Shown in pieces: positions 2,834 to 22,792 of a stretch of 37,005 nt of DNA. The DNA comes from Coriobacteriia bacterium (lineage in GTDB: Bacteria > Actinomycetota > Coriobacteriia > WRKU01), in the NCBI GenBank assembly GCA_009784095.1, contig WRDL01000002.1, positions 1 through 37,005 on the forward strand, written 5' to 3'. How positions within the stretch are numbered: the first letter of the stretch is position 1; each line of letters begins with the position of its first letter. The notes under the pieces were generated by a model. That model did not search any database. It was not told where the DNA came from and was given only the letters and a program-made list of their open reading frames with translations. A program made the translations under genes and the position numbers.

Positions 2834-2885
2834 CGTTTCACCTTTCACTACGATTTTCATGTGCATACCAGCATACCGCAAGTTG

Positions 2886-2976
2886 GGACCGTAGGGTCGG
2901 TTCCTTTTGCCCCATTTGGATAGAGGAGTGGATACCTTGGGCACAAAGGGGACAAAAGGAACCGACCTTACGGTCC
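2886..2976. repeat. Long imperfect inverted repeat (REP-like hairpin element) carrying the core GTAGGGTCGGTTCCTTT
   Basis: Left arm 2886-2913 is GGACCGTAGGGTCGGTTCCTTTTGCCCC. Right arm 2948-2976 is GGGGACAAAAGGAACCGACCTTACGGTCC. They are reverse complements apart from 1 indel and 1 mismatch. The 17-nt core 2891-2907 is identical to 21410-21426. Confidence 0.85.
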
Positions 2977-3018
2977 TAGGATATTAAGACACCCCGGCCG
3001 TCACAGTTGTGAACATTT

Positions 3019-7990: not shown

Positions 7991-8049
7991 CGGTACTCCT
8001 CCTCGGCTACCTTGATTTGACCATTCATATTATACGAGACGAAAGTGTG

Positions 8050-8075
8050 ACGTATGGGACCGACCCTACGGACAC
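8050..8075. repeat. Degenerate single arm of the GTAGGGTCGG repeat family, overlapping the lysA stop codon
   Basis: The minus strand reads TGTCCGTAGGGTCGGTCCCATACG. The TAG at 8066-8068 is the lysA stop. It matches CCGTAGGGTCGGT(T)CC of element 2886-2913 with one deleted T. Confidence 0.5.
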
Positions 8076-9446: not shown

Positions 9447-11144
9447 CTACATCCTTTCCGGAGCCGCAATGCCGAGCAGGTCGAACGCGACCCGCAGGGT
9501 GCGGCGCGTCGCATCGACGAGCGCCAAGCGCGCTTCGTTGATGGTCCCGTCATCGGCGATCACACGACATTGCGCATAGAACTGATGGAACACCGCAGCA
9601 AGTTCCTCCGCGTAGTAGGTCAGTTTGAAGGGCGCCAGATCGCGCGCGGCAAGCTCGACGACCTCGGGAAACTCGGCGATCTTTCGCACAAGCGCCAATT
9701 CACTGGGATCGGTCAGACCGGAAAGATCGATATCGAGGGGCAACCTCTCCGCCAACTCATCGGCCGTCCCTTCGCCGAACGCCTTGCGCAAGATACTGCA
9801 TATCCGCGCATAGGCATATTGGACGTAGTAGATAGGGTTGGCGGCACTCTGCTCGACCGCAACGTCGATGTCGAAATCAACCTGCTGATCGGTGTCACGA
9901 CGCAAGAACCAGTAGCGCGTTGCGTCCGCTCCGACCTCGTCAACGAGCTCCTCGAATGTGATCATCTCTCCGGTACGCTTGCTCATGCGGACCGGTTTAC
10001 CGTCACGGAAGATATTGACGAGCTGTCCTATGACGACATCGAGCGCCCCGGGGTGTCCGAGCGAAGCGACTGCCGCTTTCATGCGTGTGACGTAACCGTG
10101 GTGGTCGGCTCCCCAGATATCGATCACGCGATCGAAGCCGCGATCGAACTTATCCTTGTGATAGGCGATATCAGGCGCGAAGTAGGTATAGGTGCCATCC
10201 GCCTTGACCAGCACACGATCCTTGTCATCACCGAAATCAGATGAGCGGAACCACAACGCGTCGTCTTTCTCGTAGAGGCGGCCGTCGGAGCGCAATACCT
10301 CGAGCGCGCGGTCGACTTCGTTGGGATCGCCCTCGTAGAGGGCTCGCTCGGAGAACCAGACATCGAAATCGACTCCGGTCGCCGCGAGGAACTCGCGCAT
10401 ATGTGTCATGACCTTTTGATATCCACGCTCACGGAGAAAGACTTCACGTTCGAGCGGATCGGAGTCGACCCACGCATCGCCGACTTCATCAGCGATCTCA
10501 CGAGCGATATCGGTCACATAGGCGCCTTGATAGGCAGCCTCAGGCATTTTTGCTTCAATATCATGCAGCTGCAGATAGCGTACCGCCAGACTCTTGCCGA
10601 AATTCTCCATCTGTACTCCGGCGTCGTTGATGTAGAACTCGCGCTGCACGTCGTGTCCGGAGTGGGATAGGATACGCGCCATCGAATCGCCCAACGCTGC
10701 CCACCGTCCGTGCCCGATGTGCATCGGACCGACCGGGTTGGCGCTCACGAACTCGATCTGCACACGCGTTCCTGCGCCATCATTGCTCGACCCGAACGAG
10801 CGGTCGAGTTCACGCACTTCGCGTACCACACGCGTTAATGCGGGTTGCGACAGACGCATGTTGATGAATCCGGGTCCGGCGATCTCCACCGATTCGATGT
10901 CGGACGATCCAGCGATGTGTGAAGCGATGATCTGAGCGATAGCACGCGGATTCATGCCAGCGGTCTTTGCCAGACGCAGCGCGACCGAACTTGCCCAATC
11001 CCCATGCGACGGATCGCGGGGATGCTCGATGCCCAGCTCCGATATCTCGATGCCATCAAGCGTCAGCTCACCGGCATCGACCGCTGATCTCACCGCGTCA
11101 CGCACTAGTTGTTCGATCGTCTCTCTCACGCGCTCCTCATTCAT
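9447..11144 (-). CDS. argS: Arginine--tRNA ligase
   Basis: 565 aa. Class I motifs PMHIGHGR (HIGH) and RMSKRTG (KMSKS-like), plus an anticodon-binding C-terminus ending ...APERM. Confidence 0.95.
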   Translation of the reverse strand: MNEERVRETIEQLVRDAVRSAVDAGELTLDGIEISELGIEHPRDPSHGDWASSVALRLAKTAGMNPRAIAQIIASHIAGSSDIESVEIAGPGFINMRLSQPALTRVVREVRELDRSFGSSNDGAGTRVQIEFVSANPVGPMHIGHGRWAALGDSMARILSHSGHDVQREFYINDAGVQMENFGKSLAVRYLQLHDIEAKMPEAAYQGAYVTDIAREIADEVGDAWVDSDPLEREVFLRERGYQKVMTHMREFLAATGVDFDVWFSERALYEGDPNEVDRALEVLRSDGRLYEKDDALWFRSSDFGDDKDRVLVKADGTYTYFAPDIAYHKDKFDRGFDRVIDIWGADHHGYVTRMKAAVASLGHPGALDVVIGQLVNIFRDGKPVRMSKRTGEMITFEELVDEVGADATRYWFLRRDTDQQVDFDIDVAVEQSAANPIYYVQYAYARICSILRKAFGEGTADELAERLPLDIDLSGLTDPSELALVRKIAEFPEVVELAARDLAPFKLTYYAEELAAVFHQFYAQCRVIADDGTINEARLALVDATRRTLRVAFDLLGIAAPERM

Positions 11145-11231
11145 TTATATGCAATACTTCAGTATAAAAGAACGAGCCCCCCGTGGGGAGAACTAGCGTA
11201 ATTACTTATCGTGAATAAAGGTCAGGTCGCT

Positions 11232-12587
11232 CTAGCCGACGAGTTCTTCGAGGAACGCATCGAGCGCGTCCGGCAGCCTCTGATACAGACGAGCCGGATT
11301 CATCATCTGGCGCGCGACCAGTTTGGTCGCATATGGTTTTGCCGCTACGGTGACATCGATATCGGGATAGACCATCTGCGCACAGCCCTCGACGGTCACG
11401 AGTGCTTTGATCAACAGCCCGAATCCACGCGGTACGCTCACCCGCTCGTCATTCATGATTCCGAGAAATCCGATCGCGAATCCGCGTATATCACGCGGGG
11501 TGGCGCCAAGGGTGCGCGACATCAGCTCGGCGACCTTCTGCTCAACGATCGGTTGGCGCTCAGGCGTGATGACCAATCCCAGTGGCGCAGAGTACTTGAT
11601 CGCGCGCTTCGCGTCCCCATAGACGGTCGCGACCAGGACCTGCGTGATAGCTTCGCGGTGTTCGGCGGCAACGTTGCCCAAGATACCGAAGTCTATGTAG
11701 CATATGCGTGAGTCTGGAGTCAGGATCATATTCGATTGGTGCAGGTCGGCGTGGAAATATCCCAGTTCAAGCACTTGTCGCATGAATACCTCGGCACCAT
11801 GCAACGCCAAGTAGCGCGCATCGACCCCCGCCGCCTCAGCTTGCTCCGCCTCGGTCAAGTGATAGCCTTCTACAAATCCCATCGTCAGAACGTTCGGTGA
11901 GATGTAGGGCCAGATCATCGGCGCGGTGGTCACGCGCGGCCAGGCGCGATACTCGAATGCGAACTCATCGGAGATGCGTGCCTCGTTGCGCAGGTCGCAC
12001 TCTCGCTGCAGTGACTCGGAGAGTTCTTCGACGATCAGACCGACGTTGAAACGTCTGAGCGAGTCGAACCAATTCAAGCGGTCGACCCAGCGTGCCGCGA
12101 TCTCGAGGTCGGCTTCGATCGTCTCTTTAGTGTGCGGCCGCACGACTTTGATCGCAAGGGGGGTACCTGCATCGAGCTCCTCACCGAAGATCGTGGTATA
12201 CGGTTCATGGAGTTTCGCGCGATGTACCTGCGCGATCGATGCCGAGCCGATCGGCTCCCGCTCGAAATCGACGAAGAGCTCGTCGGGGCTTTTGCCAAAA
12301 TCCTTTTCAATCACTTCGGCTATAGCCTTATAAGGGAGTGCCGGTACCGCGTCGCGCAACGATTCCATCTCGAAGACGTATTCGGCGGGGAACATGTCGG
12401 GGCGCAGTGAGATCAGTTGTCCGAGTTTGATGAACGCCGGACCCAGTTCCTCGAACGCAAGGCGTAGTTCTTCTGCACGGATCACGCGCTTTTGTGCCGC
12501 GTCCATGAGCCCAAAGCGCGTACGGGTAAGCGCGTTGAGCAAGTGCTTCGTAAAGACGAATGATATCTTTCGTGAACGAGCGCTCAT
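11232..12587 (-). CDS. ABC1/UbiB (AarF) atypical protein-kinase-family protein
   Basis: 451 aa. Motifs PIGSASIAQVHRA, LAIKVVRP, FHADLHQSNM and YIDFG are characteristic of the ABC1/ADCK/UbiB family. Confidence 0.85.
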   Translation of the reverse strand: MSARSRKISFVFTKHLLNALTRTRFGLMDAAQKRVIRAEELRLAFEELGPAFIKLGQLISLRPDMFPAEYVFEMESLRDAVPALPYKAIAEVIEKDFGKSPDELFVDFEREPIGSASIAQVHRAKLHEPYTTIFGEELDAGTPLAIKVVRPHTKETIEADLEIAARWVDRLNWFDSLRRFNVGLIVEELSESLQRECDLRNEARISDEFAFEYRAWPRVTTAPMIWPYISPNVLTMGFVEGYHLTEAEQAEAAGVDARYLALHGAEVFMRQVLELGYFHADLHQSNMILTPDSRICYIDFGILGNVAAEHREAITQVLVATVYGDAKRAIKYSAPLGLVITPERQPIVEQKVAELMSRTLGATPRDIRGFAIGFLGIMNDERVSVPRGFGLLIKALVTVEGCAQMVYPDIDVTVAAKPYATKLVARQMMNPARLYQRLPDALDAFLEELVG

Positions 12588-12603
12588 GAGCGTTCAGTCA
12601 TCA

Positions 12604-12948
12604 CTACAGCGTTCTCGCGGCAAGTGCATCAAGCGTCGCGTTCATAGACTCGAGTTGTCCGCGCAGCGCTCCCACCTCGAAACTGAGTCTCTCGACTCGC
12701 TCGGTAAGGTCCTGATCAGCTTCTTCAGGTGTTACTTCAGGATTGGAAAGCTCATCTTTGAGCTCCTCTTTGAGCACTTCGACCTGGGCGGCGAGCCCAT
12801 CGACGAACGCACCCGGTCCCATGCTCATCTCACCGGTGCTCTGCTCCTCCCCGCGTGCAATCGCGGCTTTGAGCCCCTCGTCAGCGGTCTCATGAACGAG
12901 CTGCCATGCCGCCAGAAATTTCATGAAATCATCGTTGGTCAGAGCCAT
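12604..12948 (-). CDS. Hypothetical acidic coiled-coil protein
   Basis: 114 aa. Strong RBS AAAGGAGG before ATG 12948. It starts 19 nt after map and ends 16 nt before the ABC1 kinase, so it is probably co-transcribed. No family recognised. Confidence 0.7.
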   Translation of the reverse strand: MALTNDDFMKFLAAWQLVHETADEGLKAAIARGEEQSTGEMSMGPGAFVDGLAAQVEVLKEELKDELSNPEVTPEEADQDLTERVERLSFEVGALRGQLESMNATLDALAARTL

Positions 12949-12967
12949 CGTGCCTCCTTTGTCGATG

Positions 12968-13717
12968 CTACGGTATCGTCAGTATCTGCGGTCCCTCTCC
13001 GGTGATCGCCACGGTATGCTCGATATGGCCGCATCTGCCACCGTCGCGAGATGCCACGGTCCATCCGTCTCCGAGTTTCTCGACCCGACCGTTGCCCAGC
13101 GTGAACATCGGCTCGATCGCGAATACCATACCATTCTTAAGGCGAACACCGCGTCCCTTCGGACCCCAATTGGGGATCGAGGGATCCTCATGCATCCGCG
13201 TTCCGATGCCATGACCGGTATATTCACGCACGATGCCGAGCTTCTCGCGTTCGGCGATCGCGCCGATCGCCGCCGACACATCTCCGAGGCGTTTGCCCGC
13301 GACGCATTGCTCGATTCCGGCGTAAAGCCCCTCGCGTGTCGTATCGATCAGGCGTTGAGATTGCGGGTCGATCGTACCGACCGCGAACGTATCGGCAGTA
13401 TCACCGACATAGCCTTCGTGGATGGCGCCCACATCGATCGAGATGATATCTCCTTCTTGGAGAAGGCGATCCTCGCTGGGAAGACCGTGCACCAATTCAT
13501 CGTTGATGCTGGCGCAGATCGTTGCCGGAAATCCCTGATAGCCCAAGAACGCCGGAGTGGCACCCGCTTGACGGATGACCTCCTCGGCGACCGCGTTGAG
13601 CTTGGCGGTGGAGACGCCGGGTGCGACCGCGCGCCCTACTTCTGTCAGTGCCTGTGCGCTGATCCGACCGGCTTCGCGCATCAACTCCAATTCATGTCGA
13701 GATTTCCGGATTATCAC
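12968..13717 (-). CDS. map: Type I methionine aminopeptidase
   Basis: 249 aa. Metal-ligand context DVGAIHEGYVGD, TGHGIG, FAIEPM and HIEHT. Confidence 0.95.
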   Translation of the reverse strand: MIIRKSRHELELMREAGRISAQALTEVGRAVAPGVSTAKLNAVAEEVIRQAGATPAFLGYQGFPATICASINDELVHGLPSEDRLLQEGDIISIDVGAIHEGYVGDTADTFAVGTIDPQSQRLIDTTREGLYAGIEQCVAGKRLGDVSAAIGAIAEREKLGIVREYTGHGIGTRMHEDPSIPNWGPKGRGVRLKNGMVFAIEPMFTLGNGRVEKLGDGWTVASRDGGRCGHIEHTVAITGEGPQILTIP

Positions 13718-13723
13718 GAAGAT

Positions 13724-14356
13724 CTATAGATTCTTGAGAAGATCGAGGACATCTTGCCAGACCGCGATGATGTCACGATCGCCGTTGACCCGGTGCAGAA
13801 TTCCCGCGTCCTCGTAATAATCGATCAAGGGAGCGGTCTGTGCATCATAGACGTTGAGACGATTGCGGACCGTCGCTTCGTTATCGTCATCGCGTTGATA
13901 GAGTTCCCCTCCGCAGACGGAGCAGACCTCGCCCTCGCTGATATTGGAGATACGTCCGCAATCGCGACAGGTCCGTCGCGCGGTCAGACGATCGATAATG
14001 ACCTGCGGGTCGACATCGACCGAAAGCGCACTGTCGATCTTCTTACCCATCTCGGCAAGTGCCGCGTCAAGCTCCTCTGCCTGCACAATCGTTCGGGGAA
14101 ATCCATCGAGTATGAAGCCACCTTCGGTATCCCCGGCGCCCAGTCGATCCTTGACCAGACCGATCACGACCTCATCAGGTACCAGATCGCCGGCGTCCAT
14201 GTACTTTTTCGCTTCGAGTCCCAGCGGGGTGCCTCGAGACACCGCACAGCGCAAGATGTCGCCGGTCGAGATCTGTGGGATCCCGAATTCTTCGACGATG
14301 TGTTTCGCCTGCGTGCCTTTACCCGCTCCCGGCGCTCCCAACAACACAAGATTCAT
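13724..14356 (-). CDS. adk: Adenylate kinase (zinc-lid type)
   Basis: 210 aa. P-loop [10 protein letters not shown], and a lid with CRDC...CSVC. RBS GAGGAGG before ATG 14356. Confidence 0.95.
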
Positions 14357-14378
14357 AGTTGCCTCCTCATGCCCGTGG

Positions 14379-14447
14379 CAATACGGTCGATTCCTTTCGT
14401 CTCACGATCCAAAGCTTACTCTCACTCGGCGCCGAAAGAATCCGACC
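14379..14447. repeat. Repeat-family arm (14379-14405) with a degenerate inverted partner (14433-14447)
   Basis: CAATACGGTCGATTCCTTTCGTCTCAC matches 21408-21434 (CAGTAGGGTCGGTTCCTTTCGTCTCAC) at 24 of 27 positions in the same orientation. The partner CGAAAGAATCCGACC is an imperfect reverse complement of GGTCGATTCCTTTCG. Confidence 0.75.
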
Positions 14448-14503
14448 TCATTGGCCCGCTCTTTCCATTACCTGTTTCTATGGTACTACGAAGAGATGAA
14501 AAT

Positions 14504-14629
14504 GGGACGGGAGGAACCGTCCCTGATGTCACTGGTGTCACGAACGGGACGGGAGGAACCGTCCCTGATGTCTCTGATGCCACGAACGGGACAGGAGGGT
14601 CGGACCCTGGTATCCCGAACGAAAGAAGT
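14504..14629. repeat. 42-bp tandem repeat: two good copies plus one degenerate copy, each with a GC-rich hairpin
   Basis: Units start at 14504, 14546 and 14588. Units 1 and 2 differ at 3 of 42 positions. Each contains GGGACGG-GAGGAA-CCGTCCC (7-bp stem). Unit 3 diverges and contains the palindrome AGGGTC-G-GACCCT. Confidence 0.85.
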
Positions 14630-14644
14630 TGCCCCTACTGTCCC
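14616..14644. repeat. Repeat-family arm overlapping the stop codon of the acyl-CoA synthetase gene
   Basis: ACGAAAGAAGTTGCCCCTACTGTCCC parallels ACGAAAGGAACCGCCCCTACTGTCTC at 21503-21528. The CTA at 14635-14637 is the TAG stop of 14635-16311. Confidence 0.7.
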
Positions 14645-16311
14645 AAAGCGTCCTCAGCGCGGATCTCTTTGCGCTTGATCTTACCGGACAGCGTCTTGGG
14701 AAGCTCATCGACGAACTCCACGATACGCGGATACTTATAGGGTGCAGTGGTCTTCTTCACATGCGTCTGCAGATCCTTGACGAGCACATCGGACGGATCC
14801 CAGCCTTTCGCAAGTACGATGGTTGCTTTGACGACCAGACCGCGCAACTCATCGGGCGCTCCGGTGATCGCGCATTCGACGACCGCGGGATGCTCGATCA
14901 ACGCGCTCTCGACCTCGAACGGACCGATACGGTACCCACTGCATTTGATGACGTCATCGTTGCGTCCGACGAACGTGAAGTAGCCGTCGCTGTCACGCCA
15001 GGCGACATCCCCCAGATTGTAACGATCGTTGGCGAACACCTCGGCGGTGCGCTCGGGATCATTGTAGTAGCCCACGAACAGTCCGACCGGGATCTGACGC
15101 CCCAGACCGGTGACGACGATCTCGCCTTCCTCGCCGTCAGGTACATAGCGACCATCCTCGCCGAGCAGGCGGATGTTATAGAGCGCCGCAGGTTTGCCCA
15201 TCGACCCGGCACGCGGTTCGATCCATGGCCACGTCGCGATGAGCACCACACTCTCGCTCTGTCCGAATCCCTCACGGATCTTGAGTCCCGTATGCTTTTC
15301 CCACTGCCGGGTAACCTCGGGATTGAGCGGCTCTCCGGCGGTCGCAAAATTCTGAACGCTGGATAAATCGTAGCTGCCCACATCTTCTTGGAGCATGAAG
15401 CGATACATCGTCGGCGGAGCACAGAACGTCGTCAGTTCATAGTCTTGGATCTTTTGAAGCAGATTGGCGGGGATGAACTTATCCATATCGTAGGCGAACA
15501 CGGTGGCACCACAGATCCACTGACCGTAGATCTTTCCCCAACCGAACTTTGCCCAACCGCTGTCACTCACACTCAGGTGCAGCGTGTTCTCTTTGACCTG
15601 TTGCCAGAAATGAGCGGTGATGATATGTCCGAGCGGATGCAGATGGTTGTGGCGTACCATCTTGGCAAGCCCGGTCGTCCCACTCGTGAAATAGATCATC
15701 AGTGTGTCGTCGTTCTTCGTCGCATCTTCACCGATGGGACGCACCCAATCCTCGGATCCCGCCTCCAGCAACTCCTCGAACGAGAGCCATCCTTCGCGTT
15801 GAGCGCCGTTGACCACCAAGGTATTCTTGACCGTGGGACACTGGTCGCGTGACTGCTCGACCTGATCGATCACATAGTCGTTGTCCGCGCAGATGATCAT
15901 ATCGATCCCTGCAGCATTAGCTCGATAGACCAGATCCTTCTTAGTGAGCTGGACGGTCCCCGGGATCAAGATCGCACCGATCTTGAAAAGCGCGGTCGCG
16001 ATGACCCAGTACTCCCAGCGACGACCCAAAATCAGCAACACGATGCTGCCCTTCTTGATGCCCAGCTCGCTCAGCGCGTTGGCGCATTTGTCGCTCAGAT
16101 GAGAGATCTCGCTGAATGTGAATGTCCGCTCGTCACCGGCGTCGTTGCACCACACGAGCGCGTTCTTCTCAGGCTCGACTCGTGCCCACTCGTCAACGAC
16201 ATCGTAGGCGAAGTTGAAATTGTCCGGGACCAGGATATCGAAGTTATCGACGAAGTCCTCGTATGTCTCGAACGTATGGTGCGGGCAGAATTTATCGAGT
16301 AAATAGCTCAC
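14635..16311 (-). CDS. AMP-forming acyl-CoA synthetase, short/medium-chain (ACSM/MacS-like) type, copy 2
   Basis: 558 aa. Motifs YFTSGTTGLAKM, GYFTFVGRNDDVIKCSGYRIGPFEVES and PKTLSGKIKR. GTG start at 16311 is preceded by AAGGAG at 7 nt. Paralog of 476-2236. Confidence 0.85.
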   Translation of the reverse strand: MSYLLDKFCPHHTFETYEDFVDNFDILVPDNFNFAYDVVDEWARVEPEKNALVWCNDAGDERTFTFSEISHLSDKCANALSELGIKKGSIVLLILGRRWEYWVIATALFKIGAILIPGTVQLTKKDLVYRANAAGIDMIICADNDYVIDQVEQSRDQCPTVKNTLVVNGAQREGWLSFEELLEAGSEDWVRPIGEDATKNDDTLMIYFTSGTTGLAKMVRHNHLHPLGHIITAHFWQQVKENTLHLSVSDSGWAKFGWGKIYGQWICGATVFAYDMDKFIPANLLQKIQDYELTTFCAPPTMYRFMLQEDVGSYDLSSVQNFATAGEPLNPEVTRQWEKHTGLKIREGFGQSESVVLIATWPWIEPRAGSMGKPAALYNIRLLGEDGRYVPDGEEGEIVVTGLGRQIPVGLFVGYYNDPERTAEVFANDRYNLGDVAWRDSDGYFTFVGRNDDVIKCSGYRIGPFEVESALIEHPAVVECAITGAPDELRGLVVKATIVLAKGWDPSDVLVKDLQTHVKKTTAPYKYPRIVEFVDELPKTLSGKIKRKEIRAEDALGQ

Positions 16312-16372
16312 CTGGTAACTCCTTATTAGGACGGGCGAAACAGTGCGCCATGAGGGAGGGGCCTTCCATTCC

Positions 16373-16927
16373 CTATTCGGCGATAACGGTCACGAATCTG
16401 GTGCGTTCTCTCGACGCACACGACTGTCCATGCGCAAGCATCGAGTTGAAGTAAATGCAGTCACCCTCGCCAAGGATGATGCTTTGATCGGCGAGCCTGA
16501 ACTCCATCGTGCCCTCGAGCACCATGTTGAACTCTTGTCCGCTGTGCGTCACCAGACTGGTCTCGGCCCCATCAGGATCGAGTGTGACGAGAAGCGGCTG
16601 CATGACTTTGTTGGAGTACAGCCACGCCAGGTCCTCGAACGCGTAACCGGGCAGCCGATCGACCTCGCGACCTTCACCGCGGCGCACGACCTGATATGTG
16701 TCGAGTTTGGCACGCACACCGGTCAGGATCTCGGTCATATCGATCCCGAATTTTTGCGACATATGGAATATCACGCTGATCGGCACATCAGCGCCGGTCT
16801 CCTCATAGATGCGATACTGGTCGACCGTGATCCCGAGATCCTCGGCCATCTCATGACACGTGACATCACACGCCTCGCGCAGTCCTTTGATCCGTTGACC
16901 GAGCTCGGCAAAATCAATCTGGGTCAT
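16373..16927 (-). CDS. XRE-family HTH transcriptional regulator with C-terminal cupin domain, copy 2
   Basis: 184 aa. HTH N-terminus and cupin segment HSGQEFNMVLEGTMEF...GDCIYFNS..AHG. RBS AGGAGGA. It starts 19 nt after the oxidoreductase gamma subunit. Confidence 0.8.
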   Translation of the reverse strand: MTQIDFAELGQRIKGLREACDVTCHEMAEDLGITVDQYRIYEETGADVPISVIFHMSQKFGIDMTEILTGVRAKLDTYQVVRRGEGREVDRLPGYAFEDLAWLYSNKVMQPLLVTLDPDGAETSLVTHSGQEFNMVLEGTMEFRLADQSIILGEGDCIYFNSMLAHGQSCASRERTRFVTVIAE

Positions 16928-16945
16928 CTGCGTCCTCCTGAATGC

Positions 16946-17491
16946 CTAAGCGTCGTTGAACTCATAGCCGAGCTTGAGCGCGCGAATGTTCGGCTCAAGG
17001 AGATGGGCCTTTCTCTCGCTGATCGATTTCTTGATCGCCGCTTCGACATCTTTGATGTCGAGACAACCGCTCTCCTTGACTATCACGCCGGTCAAGATGA
17101 CGTTTGCCAAGCCTTTGAGATCGTTATCTTCGGCCATCGTTGTCGCCGGAACCTTGATAAGGCGTACGCCTTCGCGTTCCTGCACATCGGGCACCAGCAT
17201 CTGATCGACGATGATGACGCCACCTTCGACCACGTCGTCCTTGAATTTGTCATAGGAGGGTTGGTTCATGGCGAGCAGGACATCGGGCTCGAGCACGAGC
17301 GGCGAGCCGATCGGCTCCTCTGAGAGCACAACGCTGCAGTTAGCGGTACCTCCGCGCATCTCGGGACCGTAACTGGGAAGCCATGATACCTCGCGTCCTT
17401 CGATCAGACCACCATAGCTGAGCAGTTTCGCGGCGAAGAGCACCCCTTGACCACCGAAGCCGGCAAGAAGAAGGTTATATACCTTTGACAT
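16946..17491 (-). CDS. 2-oxoacid:ferredoxin oxidoreductase, gamma subunit
   Basis: 181 aa. N-terminus [17 protein letters not shown] and [15 protein letters not shown] are typical of the Kor/Vor/Por gamma family. Confidence 0.88.
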
Positions 17492-17495
17492 GACT

Positions 17496-18269
17496 CTACA
17501 CCTCGCTTTCCACTACGGTGTCCCCGTTCGTGCTTACATCTTTGTACACGCCCAAGGGGTAATAGGGGAGCAGATTCTCTTGGAGCCATTCGATCGCTCC
17601 GGGTCCTGAAAGCCCCCAGTTGGTGGGGCAGGTACTCATGACCTCGATGATGCTGTATCCCTTGCCGTCGATCTGGTTTTGGAACGCCTTTTTGATCGCG
17701 CGCTTTGCCTCACGTACGTGCTTTGGTGTGTCGAGCGAGACCCGTTGAGCGAGCGCGACCCCATCGAGCGTCGAGAGCATCTCGACCATCCGGATCGGAT
17801 AACCTTGGGTCTCGACATCACGACCGGTCGGTGATGTCTGTGTGATCTGACCGGGAAGCGAGGTCGGTGCCATCTGACCGCCGGTCATGCCATAGATCGC
17901 GTTGTTGATGAATATGACGACGATGTTCTCGCCGCGGGTCGCGGCATGCACCGTCTCGGCGGTACCGATGCTTGCCAGGTCGCCATCTCCCTGATAGGTG
18001 AAGACGATTGCATCAGGATGTACGCGCTTGACCGCGGTCGCGACCGCCGGCGCGCGTCCGTGCGCCGCCTGCAACATATCGGTGTTGAAGAACTCGTAGG
18101 CAAGTACCGAGCAACCGACCGGCGCGATACCGATCGCGCGATCCGCCAGATCGAGCTCATCAAGAGTCTCAGCGATCAGTCGATGTGCGATTCCATGGGT
18201 GCAACCGGGACAATAGGTGAACGGTTTGTCGCTTAATGATTTGGGACGTTCGAATACCGTCTGAGCCAT
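17496..18269 (-). CDS. 2-oxoacid:ferredoxin oxidoreductase, beta (TPP-binding) subunit
   Basis: 257 aa. CPGCTHG cluster ligands and TPP motif YQGDGDLASIG...NN.IYGMTGGQ. Its start overlaps the alpha-subunit stop by 1 nt (TAATG). Confidence 0.9.
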   Translation of the reverse strand: MAQTVFERPKSLSDKPFTYCPGCTHGIAHRLIAETLDELDLADRAIGIAPVGCSVLAYEFFNTDMLQAAHGRAPAVATAVKRVHPDAIVFTYQGDGDLASIGTAETVHAATRGENIVVIFINNAIYGMTGGQMAPTSLPGQITQTSPTGRDVETQGYPIRMVEMLSTLDGVALAQRVSLDTPKHVREAKRAIKKAFQNQIDGKGYSIIEVMSTCPTNWGLSGPGAIEWLQENLLPYYPLGVYKDVSTNGDTVVESEV

Positions 18270-19339
18270 TATGCATCACCGCCTTTCTCAGCGTTGAGCT
18301 TTTCAACTTGCTCAAGGACCTCGTTCGGTGTCGGGATGATACCACCGGTGTGTCCGAAGAACTCGACCGGAGCACGCCCGGCGACGACGAGGCAGACATC
18401 TTCGACCATCTGGCCCATGTTCATCTCGACGGTCAAGAACGCTTTCGCTTGGTCGACGACTTCTTCGATCGCGTCTGACGTGAACGGGACGAGTGTGATC
18501 GGACGGATCAGCCCGACCTTGATGCCGGCTTCGCGCGCTTTATCGACTGCGGTACGTGAAACACGGGCGCATGCGCCGAATGCGACGATGATGATATCGG
18601 CGTCCTCGGTCATATAGGTCTCGGCCTGCTGCTCATTCTCCTTGATCTTCTCGTAGCGCTCGAAACGCTCGAAGTTCATGCGCTCGAGACCCGGAGTGTC
18701 CAGATTAAGTGAGTTGATGACGTTCTGCGCACGCTTGCCACCATGTCCGGTGACCGCCCACGGCTTGTCTTTCTTCGTCTCTTTTTTCTCGGGGAGCTCG
18801 ACGGGCTCCATCATCTGACCGAGCATACCGTCGATCAGAACGATGACCGGAGTGCGATACTCATCAGCCAGCTCGAACGCTTCGTGGATCGAGCTTGCCA
18901 TCTCTTGGACGGTCGAGGGAGCGAGCACGATCGGATGGAAGTCTCCATGACCGGTCGCGCGCGTCGCCTGCCAGTAGTCGGCTTGCGAGGGCTGGATACC
19001 GCCGAGTCCGGGACCGCCACGCATCACGTTGACGATGACCGCGGGAAGGTCGGCTCCGGCGATATAGCTGATACCCTCGGATTTGAGCGACATACCGGGG
19101 CTTGAGGTCGAGGTCATACAGCGCGCGCCGGCACCCGCCGCGCCATAGACCATATTGATCGCGCCGATCTCACTTTCAGCTTGCAGATAGACACCGCCCT
19201 CTTTGGGCATTCGCTTGGCCATGTAGGCCGCTAGTTCGGTCTGCGGAGTGATCGGGTACCCGAAGAACGCTTCGCAACCGGCGCGCAGAGCGGCTTCAGC
19301 CAAAGCTTCATTGCCTTTCATCAATACTTTGTCAGCCAT
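18269..19339 (-). CDS. 2-oxoacid:ferredoxin oxidoreductase, alpha subunit (KorA/VorB-like)
   Basis: 356 aa. N-terminus KVLMKGNEALAEAALRAGCEAFFGYPITPQTE is typical of the alpha subunits of 4-subunit OFORs. RBS AAGGAGA. Confidence 0.9.
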   Translation of the reverse strand: MADKVLMKGNEALAEAALRAGCEAFFGYPITPQTELAAYMAKRMPKEGGVYLQAESEIGAINMVYGAAGAGARCMTSTSSPGMSLKSEGISYIAGADLPAVIVNVMRGGPGLGGIQPSQADYWQATRATGHGDFHPIVLAPSTVQEMASSIHEAFELADEYRTPVIVLIDGMLGQMMEPVELPEKKETKKDKPWAVTGHGGKRAQNVINSLNLDTPGLERMNFERFERYEKIKENEQQAETYMTEDADIIIVAFGACARVSRTAVDKAREAGIKVGLIRPITLVPFTSDAIEEVVDQAKAFLTVEMNMGQMVEDVCLVVAGRAPVEFFGHTGGIIPTPNEVLEQVEKLNAEKGGDA

Positions 19340-19413
19340 GATTTCTCCTTAGTCACATCTCTGGTCGATGTATATGTTTTTCATTCGTGGACCCATGCAA
19401 AGCAGATGCTTCC

Positions 19414-19635
19414 CTAGGTCACATCTGTCTTTACTACCGTGATAGCGACATCAGGACAGATCGTCGCACAGGATAGGCATACGGTGCACTCATCAGGATC
19501 CGAACACATCGCCGGATGATACCCCTTTGCAGAGAGAGTATCCTCGTCGAGTTTCATGATCTTTTGAGGGCATACTTCGACGCAGAGACCGCAGCCTTTA
19601 CAATACGTCTCGGAAACAATAATCTGAGCTGCCAT
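19414..19635 (-). CDS. 4Fe-4S ferredoxin-type delta subunit of the 2-oxoacid:ferredoxin oxidoreductase
   Basis: Two cluster motifs, CKGCGLCVEVCP and CTVCLSCATICP. The track start is 19641 (MIMAAQ...), but the GGGGGA RBS abuts that ATG, so ATG 19635 (6-nt spacing) is more likely. Confidence 0.8.
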   Translation of the reverse strand: MAAQIIVSETYCKGCGLCVEVCPQKIMKLDEDTLSAKGYHPAMCSDPDECTVCLSCATICPDVAITVVKTDVT

Positions 19636-19827
19636 AATCATTCCCCCTACCTACGCGTATGTGTGCGCGTGTGTGCTCGCAGATTTGTTGTTAATTTATT
19701 AGGATACCGCTACTTGTGTTTGTTGTGGGAGAAATGAACGAGAAAAATTTGTGGGAATATCCTTGTCACGCATAAAGAGGCGCGCCATGTATCGCAACAC
19801 GCCTCCGAAATATTAAGCGTAAGGGAT

Positions 19828-21279
19828 CTAGATCAACTCGATATCGAAGAAGTCCTCTTCATCCTCGACCATCTCATCGAAGGTCTCGTCGATGACCTCT
19901 TCGATGTACTCCGCGTCGTATCCTGCCACTTCCTCGACGTCATTGCGGCGGTTCCACCACCAATACGCGATTGCAGCGAGCATCGCTGCGATTCCCAGTC
20001 CGAGCACTACCCAGATCCACGGGTCGATCTCGATCTCGTCACCGGTCGGCGGTATGGTCGGCTGCGTCCCCGGTGTTTGTGAGACCCAATGGGCGTAGAG
20101 CGTCATGTTGCCGACCACGACGTCGTGGGCCCAATCCCAAAGGACCCCGCTCTTTGGTGCGGTCCACCATCCCATGAGGGTATGACCCGGTTTCTCGCTC
20201 ACGGCGATCGCTGAGGGGTCGAGCCATTCGAGCGTCTTGCCGACAGGTACGGTGATCGTTTTGACCGGATCACCGTTCATCGGGTCGAGCGTGAGGGTCG
20301 CGGGCTCCATGACATCGACGTTGATTGCAAGGTGATGCTTCCCGACCGTCATGTGTACCATGGTCGATCCGGGAGCGAATGCGGTGATATGACCTTCATC
20401 GTCGACCGATGCGATCGCAGCGTCGTTCGAGCTGTAACTCGGTTGGGGAAAGCTTGTGTTTTCTGGAAGAACGCTCACGCCGACTGTCACGTTCTCCCCC
20501 ACATACATTGAGAGTGCGGTCTGCTCGACCGTTACGGTCGTAGCCGGGATCTCTGGACCGAAGTGTCCTTCAGGGCCCGGCGTGACACCGCCGAAATCAG
20601 GGTTGATGACAGAAGATATCGATGCGTCAGCATCAACGATCCGCTCGATGTCGCCACCGAGGGTCCACGCGACACTTGTGCTCGCATCAGCGGCGAATGT
20701 GAGGCCGGTGGGAAGATCGCCTCCCCTGGAGCTGATCCCGATGCCGTACCACGTGCTGAGGTAAGGATCCTCACTTACCACGTTGAGATTGTTCTTGACG
20801 ACCACCTGGGAAGCGTTGATCACCAACGGAGCTCCCCCGATCGCAGCACTCGCTTGCGAGCGGTCGAGAATGACATTTGAGAGGGTGACGCTGCTTGCAC
20901 CCACCGCAGGAGTCGAAGAGGACACGTTCAGTATATGGGAGTTCTTCGATCCTCCCAAGAGTTGGACATGCGTGAAAGTGACCTCGCTGTTAACGACAGA
21001 GATGAGCTGGCATGGGTTGTTGATGCCGGAGCGTGCACCCACTTCGAAATCTGCAGAAGCGGTGATCTTGTGGTCATCTCCATCGATGACCACATTGCTC
21101 AGATCCTTGACAAGGAGCTGATAGTCGAGCTCGATGTCATCGGTCAGCTCGATCCGCGCACCGTTGACCAATGCAGCGCGCAGCTCAGTGGGATTTGAGA
21201 CGGGAGTGACCGCGAACGCAGGGGCGCACACAAGCATGAACGCAGTGGTCACCCCTAAAAGAAGAGCAACACGTTTCAT
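19828..21279 (-). CDS. Secreted cell-surface protein: signal peptide, beta-helix-like region, Big_2-like Ig domain, Listeria-Bacteroides (Flg_new)-type repeat, IPPTG plus TM plus NRRN, then an acidic tail
   Basis: Start trimmed to ATG 21279 (MKRVALLLGVTTAFMLVCAPAFA), preceded by GGAGAAGGGAAG. Ig-like segment VTVEQTALSMYVGENVTVGVSVLP...ASVDDEGHITAFAPGST. Repeat GHTLMGWWTAP...VGNMTLYAHW. C-terminus IPPTGDEIEIDPWIWVVLGLGIAAMLAAIAYWWWNRRN followed by 37 acidic residues. Confidence 0.75.
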   Translation of the reverse strand: MKRVALLLGVTTAFMLVCAPAFAVTPVSNPTELRAALVNGARIELTDDIELDYQLLVKDLSNVVIDGDDHKITASADFEVGARSGINNPCQLISVVNSEVTFTHVQLLGGSKNSHILNVSSSTPAVGASSVTLSNVILDRSQASAAIGGAPLVINASQVVVKNNLNVVSEDPYLSTWYGIGISSRGGDLPTGLTFAADASTSVAWTLGGDIERIVDADASISSVINPDFGGVTPGPEGHFGPEIPATTVTVEQTALSMYVGENVTVGVSVLPENTSFPQPSYSSNDAAIASVDDEGHITAFAPGSTMVHMTVGKHHLAINVDVMEPATLTLDPMNGDPVKTITVPVGKTLEWLDPSAIAVSEKPGHTLMGWWTAPKSGVLWDWAHDVVVGNMTLYAHWVSQTPGTQPTIPPTGDEIEIDPWIWVVLGLGIAAMLAAIAYWWWNRRNDVEEVAGYDAEYIEEVIDETFDEMVEDEEDFFDIELI

Positions 21280-21403
21280 GTCCACTTCCCTTCTCCCCAC
21301 ATAACGGTCACTGAGAACAGTTCAATGACCATTCATTGACAACTCAATGGTAGCAAACAAACCCGAATCGTTCACACACGTTGTATAAACGGCACCGGAG
21401 AGC

Positions 21404-21528
21404 GAGACAGTAGGGTCGGTTCCTTTCGTCTCACTCCATTCAAAAGAAAGTGTGCCAAGAAGGTTCACCCTTCTCGGCACACGTGCGCTTGAGCTTAATG
21501 GGACGAAAGGAACCGCCCCTACTGTCTC
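21404..21528. repeat. Long inverted repeat (29-bp arms) of the GTAGGGTCGGTTCCTTT family, enclosing a terminator hairpin
   Basis: Left arm 21404-21432 is GAGACAGTAGGGTCGGTTCCTTTCGTCTC. The reverse complement of right arm 21500-21528 is GAGACAGTAGGGGCGGTTCCTTTCGTCCC (27 of 29 match). The right arm overlaps the secY stop codon (21527-21529). Confidence 0.88.
21436..21482 (-). terminator. Rho-independent terminator downstream of secY
   Basis: The minus strand reads GTGTGCCGAGAAGG-GTGAA-CCTTCTTGGCACAC (14-bp stem with one G-U), followed by TTTCTTTTG. Confidence 0.8.
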
Positions 21529-22792
21529 ACTTGAAAAAGCCGTCGTAGTGACGCATCTTGAGCTGCGACTCGATCTGAGTCATCGTCTCGAGCGCGACAC
21601 CGACCATGATCAAGATCGACGTTCCGCCGAACTGCATGATCAACGGATTGTTCGTCGCCGCGAACAATACCGACGTACCGATCGCGATGATACCGAGGAA
21701 CAACGCGCCGGGCAGAACGATACGGTTCATGACCGTCTCGATGTACTTGATGGTCTGGCCACCGGGGCGCACACCGGGGATGAACCCACCCTGCTGACGA
21801 AGATTATCGGCAAGATCGATGGGGTTGAATACCAACGCAGTGTAGAAATAACTGAAAAACACGATCAGGATGAACGTCAAGATCCAGTTGATAGGACCTT
21901 GTGCCACCGCGTTCGCGAAGTTCTGGAACCACTCAGCCTTGATCAGCAGCGCAAGCTGAGATGGTATCGAGAGGAACGCGCTCGCGAAGATGATCGGGAC
22001 TACGTTCGCGCCGTTTACCTTCAGCGGGATGTAAGTGCTCGAACCACCCATGACACGGCGTCCGACGACTCGTTTCGCGTAGTTGACCGGAATACGACGC
22101 TGACCGCGATCGATGTAGATGACCGCCATGATGACGAGCAGGATCGACGCGATGATTATCGCAGTGAGGACATAGCTCCACGCACCGGTGCCCGACATGA
22201 GCGCCTGAGCGAGAGCGGTGGGAAAACGTGACACGATACCGACGAAGATGAGCAGCGACATACCGTTACCGATACCACGCTGGGTGATAAGCTCGGCAAG
22301 CCACATGATCAGCGACGTACCGGCGACCAACGTGATGATGATGACGCCGACGGTGATCCAACGAGGCAATGTACTCATCGCGACCGCACCCGAGAAGACC
22401 GTACCGATGAAGCCGACCGCTTCGATGGTCGCGATACCGATCGTCAGATAACGTGTGTACTGCGTGATCTTGCGCTGCCCGGACTCGCCCTCTTTGGAGA
22501 GCGCCTCAAGCGCCGGAATGGCGGCTTGGAGCAGTTGCATGATAATGCCCGCAGTAATGTAGGGCATGACACCCAGACTGAACACACTCATGCGCGCAAG
22601 CGCATCACCACTGAACAGATTGAGCATACCGAGTGCCGGTAAGTTTTCGAGTGTTGCCTGTATAGCAGCGGCGTCCACTCCGGGGACCGGAATGTGTGCA
22701 CCGATACGATAGAGGACCAGAATGGCAAGGGTGAACAGGATCTTTTTACGAAGATCGGGGACCCTGAATGCATTGGCGATAGCACTAAACAC
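21527..22792 (-). CDS. secY: Preprotein translocase subunit SecY
   Basis: 421 aa, multi-TM. N-terminus FRVPDLRKKILFTLAILVLYRIGAHIPVPGVD. Sits after rplO. Confidence 0.95.
   Translation of the reverse strand: MFSAIANAFRVPDLRKKILFTLAILVLYRIGAHIPVPGVDAAAIQATLENLPALGMLNLFSGDALARMSVFSLGVMPYITAGIIMQLLQAAIPALEALSKEGESGQRKITQYTRYLTIGIATIEAVGFIGTVFSGAVAMSTLPRWITVGVIIITLVAGTSLIMWLAELITQRGIGNGMSLLIFVGIVSRFPTALAQALMSGTGAWSYVLTAIIIASILLVIMAVIYIDRGQRRIPVNYAKRVVGRRVMGGSSTYIPLKVNGANVVPIIFASAFLSIPSQLALLIKAEWFQNFANAVAQGPINWILTFILIVFFSYFYTALVFNPIDLADNLRQQGGFIPGVRPGGQTIKYIETVMNRIVLPGALFLGIIAIGTSVLFAATNNPLIMQFGGTSILIMVGVALETMTQIESQLKMRHYDGFFK

Follow-up and report, generated by a model that had tools for sequence, protein, structure and literature searches.

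The end of the ribosomal spc operon is canonically arranged as secY-adk-map-infA. We analysed this region in a stretch of 37,005 nucleotides from a Coriobacteriia bacterium (contig WRDL01000002.1 of assembly GCA_009784095.1, hereafter the window), in which a large insert separates secY from adk and hairpin-forming repeats occur at both ends of the insert. The window keeps the ribosomal gene order up to secY as well as the adk-map pair, but secY and adk lie 7,170 bp apart, and the gap is filled by seven genes on the same (minus) strand; in the clade to which the window belongs, the distance ranges from 7.2 to 18.6 kb and infA does not follow map. For comparison, SecY-anchored loci were drawn from species-representative genomes and metagenomes. 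Among the 136 related loci holding both genes, the median spacer is 28 bp, and in 131 of them it is 200 bp or less. The block and the usual shortness of the spacer had both been noted in a preliminary description made from the sequence alone; gene calls, Pfam and NCBIfam agree with it, and the interval represents a derived insertion between two genes that otherwise adjoin closely.

The gene next to secY encodes a surface protein, and the other six form a module comprising the subunits of a 2-oxoacid:ferredoxin oxidoreductase (OFOR), a helix-turn-helix (HTH)-cupin regulator and an AMP-forming acyl-CoA synthetase (Table 1). The alpha subunit scores above the VorB cutoff and the beta, gamma and delta subunits are encoded in adjacent genes, indicating an OFOR of the VorB type. 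The combination resembles known systems of a VOR-type OFOR with an MbcS-like synthetase (PMC10026030, PMC11167679), except that the synthetase, although its best match is MbcS, stays below the equivalog cutoff. A Pfam search found no integrase or transposase in the window, in line with the earlier statement that the block has none; a tRNA scan of the window returned nothing, and the whole window gave no match to Rfam at gathering thresholds.

Table 1. Features of the secY-adk region and hairpin repeats in the window, with the genes that follow secY in related loci
Feature	Position	Strand	Basis or remark
secY	21527-22792	-	Pfam SecY, E 4.6e-106; ends the ribosomal spc cluster on this side
Surface protein (post-secY gene)	19828-21300	-	Pfam Big_2 and Flg_new; translation with signal peptide, IPPTGD sorting-like motif, transmembrane (TM) segment, acidic FFDIEL tail
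Six-gene module: ferredoxin, OFOR alpha, beta, gamma, HTH-cupin, acyl-CoA synthetase	14635-19641	-	Pfam, NCBIfam; order kept in relatives
2x[4Fe-4S] ferredoxin (OFOR delta; Pfam Fer4)	19414-19641	-	Pfam, NCBIfam; 75 codons
OFOR alpha	18269-19339	-	Pfam POR_N/PFOR_II; NCBIfam VorB subfamily NF005507, 538 bits vs cutoff 399
OFOR beta (TPP_enzyme_C)	17496-18269	-	Pfam
OFOR gamma (POR)	16946-17491	-	Pfam
HTH-cupin regulator	16373-16927	-	Pfam, NCBIfam
AMP-forming acyl-CoA synthetase	14635-16311	-	Pfam; best NCBIfam match MbcS, 452 bits vs equivalog cutoff 850
adk	13724-14356	-	Pfam ADK, E 1.6e-56
map	12968-13717	-	Peptidase_M24; next after adk
Repeat copy A, complete inverted doublet	21401-21531		Arms 21401-21436 and 21496-21531, GTAG tags outside; fold, nhmmer
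Repeat copy B, complete doublet	2882-2978		In the upstream spacer of a paralogous cupin-synthetase pair, at a distance of 11.4 kb from the block; nhmmer E 4e-10 and 3e-9
Compact doublet C	14374-14456		adk leader, between promoter-like motif and adk ribosome-binding site
Solo arm D	8042-8073	-	nhmmer E 3e-4; GTAG of the arm gives the TAG stop of a lysA-like gene (direct reading)
Arm E and three 42-nt tandem units, all in the same orientation	14500-14647	-	After the synthetase gene; repeat search, nhmmer, folds
Intrinsic-terminator-like stem-loop	21450-21482	-	14-bp stem, then TTTCTTTT (T-run); consensus scan
Terminator-like last tandem unit with T-run	14504-14523	-	Terminator scan; just upstream of adk motif
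AGCGGTATCCTAATAAATTA motif	19692-19711	-	About 55 nt upstream of the ferredoxin gene
TCGTAGTACCATAGA motif	14477-14491	-	Upstream of adk
Post-secY gene, L001	3719-4039		
Post-secY gene, L093	1394-1702		
Post-secY gene, L091	1709-2095		
Post-secY genes, L090	11352-12773 and 12954-14933		

The junctions were checked against independent assemblies. The same arrangement is present in a second sample (L082, from ENA), at 99.93% identity with 15 single-nucleotide polymorphisms (SNPs) across 21.4 kb, and two Logan contigs (L081/L083) span each junction, so that three independent assemblies agree. Samples ERZ27257304 and SRR10512951 contain the contig. Because the junctions recur in this way, an assembly artefact, which the preliminary description had asked to be considered, is ruled out.

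The closest relatives of the window are metagenome-assembled genomes (MAGs) of Coriobacteriia from termite guts. At least six of them (SecY identity 89–94% or synthetase identity 84–87%) carry the module at the secY-adk site, four showing the secY side and three the adk side. Those in the SecY range are found in Ga0123356, Ga0123353, Ga0209737 and Ga0209628. The most complete is M1 (Ga0209737_10000014; L090 and L084 on one 153-kb JGI contig; SecY 89%), in which an interval of 18.6 kb follows the order secY, an orthologous surface protein, a pilus/sortase cluster of about 11 kb (surface, MerR, camelysin-like, vWA, sortase and other genes), the same six-gene module, a VTT/DedA membrane protein gene and adk. 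In L093 and L091 (SecY 93% and 92%), secY is followed by a stub open reading frame (ORF) of 102 and 128 amino acids, respectively, and then by the ferredoxin and OFOR alpha genes. The closest, L001 (SecY 94%), has a 106-aa stub and a 988-aa surface protein before its contig ends, and the DNA homology of the window to it stops at position 21529. On the adk side, L173 (synthetase 86%) joins the module to adk through a 190-bp spacer lacking VTT, and L174 (synthetase 84%) has VTT between the two. The secY-adk junction, among the most conserved in bacteria, has been stably split for a long time in this termite-gut clade.

The six module genes occur in identical order in M1, L173, L174, L087, L170 and L171, and L087, L170 and L171 hold them at other loci, where the preliminary description had proposed to look for the block. 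L087 is another contig of the MAG that includes L002 (SecY 79%), where the secY-adk spacer is empty (148 bp); in L087 the module, with VTT, lies among unrelated genes, in the region from RNase HII to FecCD. The module is also found at other loci in Slackia piriformis and in another MAG. As for the L087 locus itself, we rejected the idea that the module is bounded there by repeated DUF4143 ATPase genes or other long repeats, since the two DUF4143 genes are merely 23% identical and no flanking repeats were found at that locus. Immediately upstream of its ferredoxin gene, antisense, are an RVT_1 reverse-transcriptase gene (378 aa) and a 164-aa ORF (L087 2392-4031).

The secY-side half of the interval differs widely across the clade, from about 0.7 kb with an ORF of roughly 100 aa to about 13 kb with the pilus/sortase cluster. 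The surface protein of the window is 43% identical to its M1 ortholog. Signal peptide and TM segment survive in all three stubs, and in L001 and L093 the sorting motif and acidic FxIEL tail are kept as well. Across the post-secY genes, the signal peptide and, at the C-terminus, the IPPTGD/LPxTG-like motif, TM segment and acidic FFxIEL tail persist, and the passenger domains are swapped or absent. This looks like a cassette-style variable surface-protein locus beside secY, in which passenger domains are exchanged or deleted and the signal peptide and membrane anchor remain. The interval is not the single captured cassette envisaged earlier; it consists of two segments with different histories, a hypervariable surface-protein part and a conserved metabolic operon.

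The divergence and composition of the module are those of its surroundings. Module proteins are 71–86% identical to those of M1 and 63–78% to those of L087, with flank proteins at 75–89% and 64–80%, respectively. The GC content at third codon positions (GC3) is 0.69–0.73 in five of the six module genes and in the surface gene, 0.53 in the ferredoxin gene and 0.60–0.72 in the flanks; this comparison, proposed at the outset as a check on capture, left the block indistinguishable from its flanks. Among the best 120 synthetase homologues listed, which are 59–88% identical, all those with a source name belong to Coriobacteriia or Actinobacteria. Co-divergence with the flanks, flank-like GC3 and homologues within the class together indicate that the module belongs natively to the lineage and reached its site by relocation, not by import, and composition and co-divergence rule out horizontal acquisition from outside the class.

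The repeats at the ends of the block belong to a dispersed family. An nhmmer arm profile, built solely from the four arms of copies A and B, identified 11 arms (nine at E<0.01 and two weaker) at four intergenic sites of the window, namely copy A, copy B, solo arm D and a cluster that fills the spacer between the synthetase gene and adk, and the core motif of the repeat occurs eight times, compared with 0.1 expected. Arms are about 32 nt long, starting with GTAG and ending with CGTC. Arms A_L, A_R, B_L, D and E have an intact GTAG, which reads GTAA in B_R and is degenerate in C_L, C_R and the tandem units. Copies A, B and C are inverted doublets that each fold as one long hairpin. Copy A, a near-perfect palindrome, forms a 131-nt hairpin (ΔG −89 kcal/mol, z −11.5; arm matches at E 5e-11 and 2e-10); its spacer is a terminator-like stem-loop, and one of its arms contains the TGA stop of secY. 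Copy B has a self-contained fold (ΔG −57.9 kcal/mol, z −8.4), and doublet C, whose arms are matched by the profile, a local hairpin (ΔG −15.5 kcal/mol with DNA parameters, z −3.2). Copies A and B have spacers that resemble each other neither in sequence nor in length, and the single arms of these copies form weak folds (−3.5 to −4.4 kcal/mol, z −0.5 to −1.3). The TAG stop of the synthetase gene comes from the GTAG of arm E (14616-14647), which lies behind that gene; arm E and two of the tandem units match at E 3e-4 to 7e-3, with the third marginal at E 0.28. Folds in this tandem group have z scores of −2.6 to −3.3, units T1 and T2 forming a 7-bp stem, and the clearly palindromic units have lost GTAG.

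No flanking target-site duplication is visible at the repeat copies. The arm profile found no match in 2.4 Mb of 172 relative loci except in re-assemblies of the window's own organism, and the arm motif had no exact match in IMG/VR viral contigs. Four of the 15 strain SNPs separating the window from L082 cluster within 21 nt of one arm of copy A (21396-21416), and the change at 21416, T to G, renders the arms perfectly complementary at that point; the cluster suggests fast turnover or conversion inside the palindrome.

The resemblance between the two edges, on which the preliminary description rested its case, is real: 21408-21434 and 14379-14405 match at 24 of 27 positions, and 21503-21528 and 14619-14644 match in opposite orientation at 21 of 26. 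It is, however, not peculiar to the edges, with further copies at 2882-2978 and 8042-8073. The outer arms had been supposed to make up one hairpin and the inner arms another; each edge has its own complete inverted pair, which folds locally. Arm A_L is as similar to its own partner (27/32) as to the other-border arm (27/32), and nearly as similar to distant copy B (25/32), implying no special relation between the two borders.

The age of the two components can be compared. Four-fold degenerate sites are 37% identical between the window and M1 (417/1119), i.e. saturated, and since the insertion is older than the split between the two, neutral repeats dating from it would now be unrecognisable. 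The border repeats are 84–89% alike and copy A is close to perfectly palindromic, which makes the repeats much younger than the arrangement, unless selection or gene conversion keeps them alike.

We consider it highly probable that a native operon was relocated into the secY-adk spacer long ago and that hairpin repeats were scattered over the region much later. In an ancestor of the clade (SecY identity at least 89%), the lineage-native six-gene operon would have moved into the tight spacer, a sortase-type surface-protein locus coming to sit there along with it and, in some relatives, a VTT/DedA gene after it. The half adjoining secY would then have turned over rapidly, with the metabolic operon next to adk staying in place. 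Much later, and so far only in the species of the window, hairpin inverted-repeat elements would have spread through intergenic DNA, with copies flanking the secY terminator, following the synthetase gene and lying within the adk leader, besides those at two or more further sites. As copies landed at both ends of the interval, the ends look alike.

Several points weigh against this sequence of events. The move would have been an intragenomic relocation whose mechanism left no trace. With the closest relative at 94% SecY identity, the arrival of the repeats is bounded only loosely, and L001, L091 and L093 are short contigs, each limited to one side of the interval. Old repeats could also, in principle, have been kept similar by concerted evolution or selection. 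Moreover, the promoter, terminator and metabolic roles discussed below are inferred from sequence.

A different course, in which late-arriving repeats reshaped the block by mediating deletions of VTT/DedA and the pilus/sortase cluster to leave a compact 7.2 kb, appears unlikely. The repeat cluster at 14374-14647 does sit exactly where M1, L174 and L087 have VTT, and the interval of the window is among the shortest complete ones seen. However, a search of the spacer between the synthetase gene and adk detected no VTT/DedA remnant, L173 lacks VTT just as the window does and its 190-bp spacer contains no repeats, and in L091 and L093 the secY side is short and free of repeats. Capture of the block by recombination between two hairpin copies, with hybrid copies left at the borders, was the mechanism put forward in the preliminary description, and we judge it very unlikely. 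In its favour, the interval lies between two like-oriented elements of one subtype, no integrase is present, and REP-type repeats, i.e. repetitive extragenic palindromes, are known to mediate rearrangements. Such a capture should leave a repeat at the empty site and at the borders of all carriers, but none was found at any observable border of M1, L091, L093 and L001 on the secY side or of M1, L173 and L174 on the adk side, and the orthologous borders of relatives have no inverted repeats of note. The predicted empty site does exist in L002; the single hairpin it was expected to carry does not. Added to this are the persistence of 84–89% similarity in repeats where neutral sites have become saturated since the clade split, a likeness between the borders that does not exceed that between partner arms and is close to that with copy B, and the composite nature of the interval. 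The notion of a horizontally acquired genomic island that lost its integration machinery is scarcely credible, for although a highly conserved operon is interrupted, at a spacer hit independently in another lineage (L003, L095 and L098), GC and GC3 do not deviate from the flanks, the divergence of the module proteins keeps pace with that of SecY, Adk and Map, the same module with similar divergence lies at other loci throughout Coriobacteriia, and the locus has no tRNA, integrase, att-like structure or border-specific att repeats, the border repeats being members of a dispersed family.

Relocation of the operon followed by late spread of the repeats bears on how such borders are read: the presence of similar repeats on both sides of an insert is no proof that they caused the insertion, and in this case comparison between loci separates the two events in time. 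Recombination between short dispersed repeats is the kind of mechanism proposed earlier for this block and has a precedent in REP-mediated chromosomal rearrangements, e.g. duplications with a REP at the join point in Salmonella; in the clade of the window, by contrast, phylogeny places the gene arrangement before the repeats. Overall, the findings are ordinary in kind, and their details are moderately interesting.

What the repeats resemble are the GTAG-tagged REP elements, which also occur as inverted doublets (BIMEs, bacterial interspersed mosaic elements, or REPINs) mobilised by RAYT/TnpA-REP transposases (PMC3733652, PMC3337134, PMC6006769) and which supply TAG stop codons to flanking ORFs (PMC3733652). 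The arms in the window, about 32 nt with GTAG at the start, show the GT[AG]G foot of this class; they are mostly inverted doublets with GTAG outside and unrelated spacers of 30–60 nt, some of them structured, and occur as singletons and tandem groups as well. They are extragenic, often just downstream of genes, give TAG stops and are species-specific. Differences remain in that a known REP unit is an imperfect palindrome of 20–40 nt, whereas the best single arms here are weak palindromes and the palindromic tandem units are without GTAG. The host, furthermore, is an actinobacterium, and the word Actinobacteria is absent from the main text of the REP surveys compared. The window holds a species-specific family of GTAG-tagged hairpin repeats in an actinobacterium. 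That its doublets are a true REPIN population in Actinomycetota, young and colonising operon boundaries, with a RAYT-like transposase elsewhere in the genome, and perhaps driving deletions in this hypervariable locus, is conceivable but doubtful; no RAYT (Y1 HUH transposase) gene lies within the window. Such a population would have been caught rewriting stop codons, bracketing a terminator and invading the adk leader.

Hairpin elements of the miniature inverted-repeat transposable element (MITE) type that act at operon boundaries include Correia, ERIC and RUP. Similarities to these are the terminal inverted arms, the long hairpins in transcripts and the intergenic location; the repeats could plausibly affect termination or mRNA stability. 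Assignment to the MITEs is disfavoured, as the internal sequence of copies A and B is not conserved, no target-site duplication is evident and no parent insertion sequence is known.

Terminator-like sites and conserved promoter-like motifs occur at the operon boundaries. The stem-loop in the spacer of copy A is probably the secY terminator, in keeping with the earlier view that secY is followed by a terminator of its own. The AGCGGTATCCTAATAAATTA motif is conserved between spacers that otherwise cannot be aligned (those of the window, L093, L091, M1 and L173) and is a candidate promoter of the module. The TCGTAGTACCATAGA motif, a candidate adk promoter, is found upstream of adk in the window, M1, L173 and L174, and in the window alone a repeat hairpin lies between it and adk. 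Judged by these signals, the interval appears to comprise three or four independent transcription units, and the repeats may add stem-loops at operon boundaries that insulate secY, the surface gene, the module and adk from one another as separate units.

Enzymes of the MbcS type activate short or branched-chain acids (PMC10026030, PMC11167679). By homology, the synthetase would convert such acids to acyl-CoAs, and the VOR-type OFOR would interconvert acyl-CoAs and 2-oxoacids using ferredoxin. Because AMP-forming activation is effectively one-way, the assimilatory direction is favoured, in which the module would run reductive carboxylation towards amino acids. Reductive carboxylation of this kind is known from rumen anaerobes. 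A paralogous pair of HTH-cupin and AMP-forming synthetase genes, 31% and 46% identical to the pair of the block, lies at 476-2944 of the window, and extra cupin-synthetase pairs are also kept beside the OFOR module in Slackia and other Coriobacteriia.

A second lineage (SecY 69%) has a different insert between secY and adk (L003 11254-16118; L098 4187-6106). The spacer is occupied by a DinB gene together with further genes in L003, L095 and L098; an antisense DinB/Pol IV gene adjoining adk is common to the L003 and L098 inserts, and that of L003 also encodes an Exo_endo_phos protein, a MazE-like protein and an ABC transporter. This independent hit suggests that the secY-adk boundary tolerates insertions, and it seems to be a recurrent insertion point.

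Downstream of the pair, 103 of 128 related loci have infA no more than 1.5 kb from map, whereas it does not follow map in the clade of the window, L002 or L003. In L002, a stretch of about 3 kb downstream of map (13600-16500) is devoid, on both strands, of ORFs exceeding about 80 aa and may be an RNA gene or degraded DNA. In the clade of the window, map is followed by argS-lysA-hom-thrB (window 9447-13717; L084 13111-15697), and the window has an additional 114-aa ORF and an ABC1 kinase gene (11232-12948), both missing from M1.

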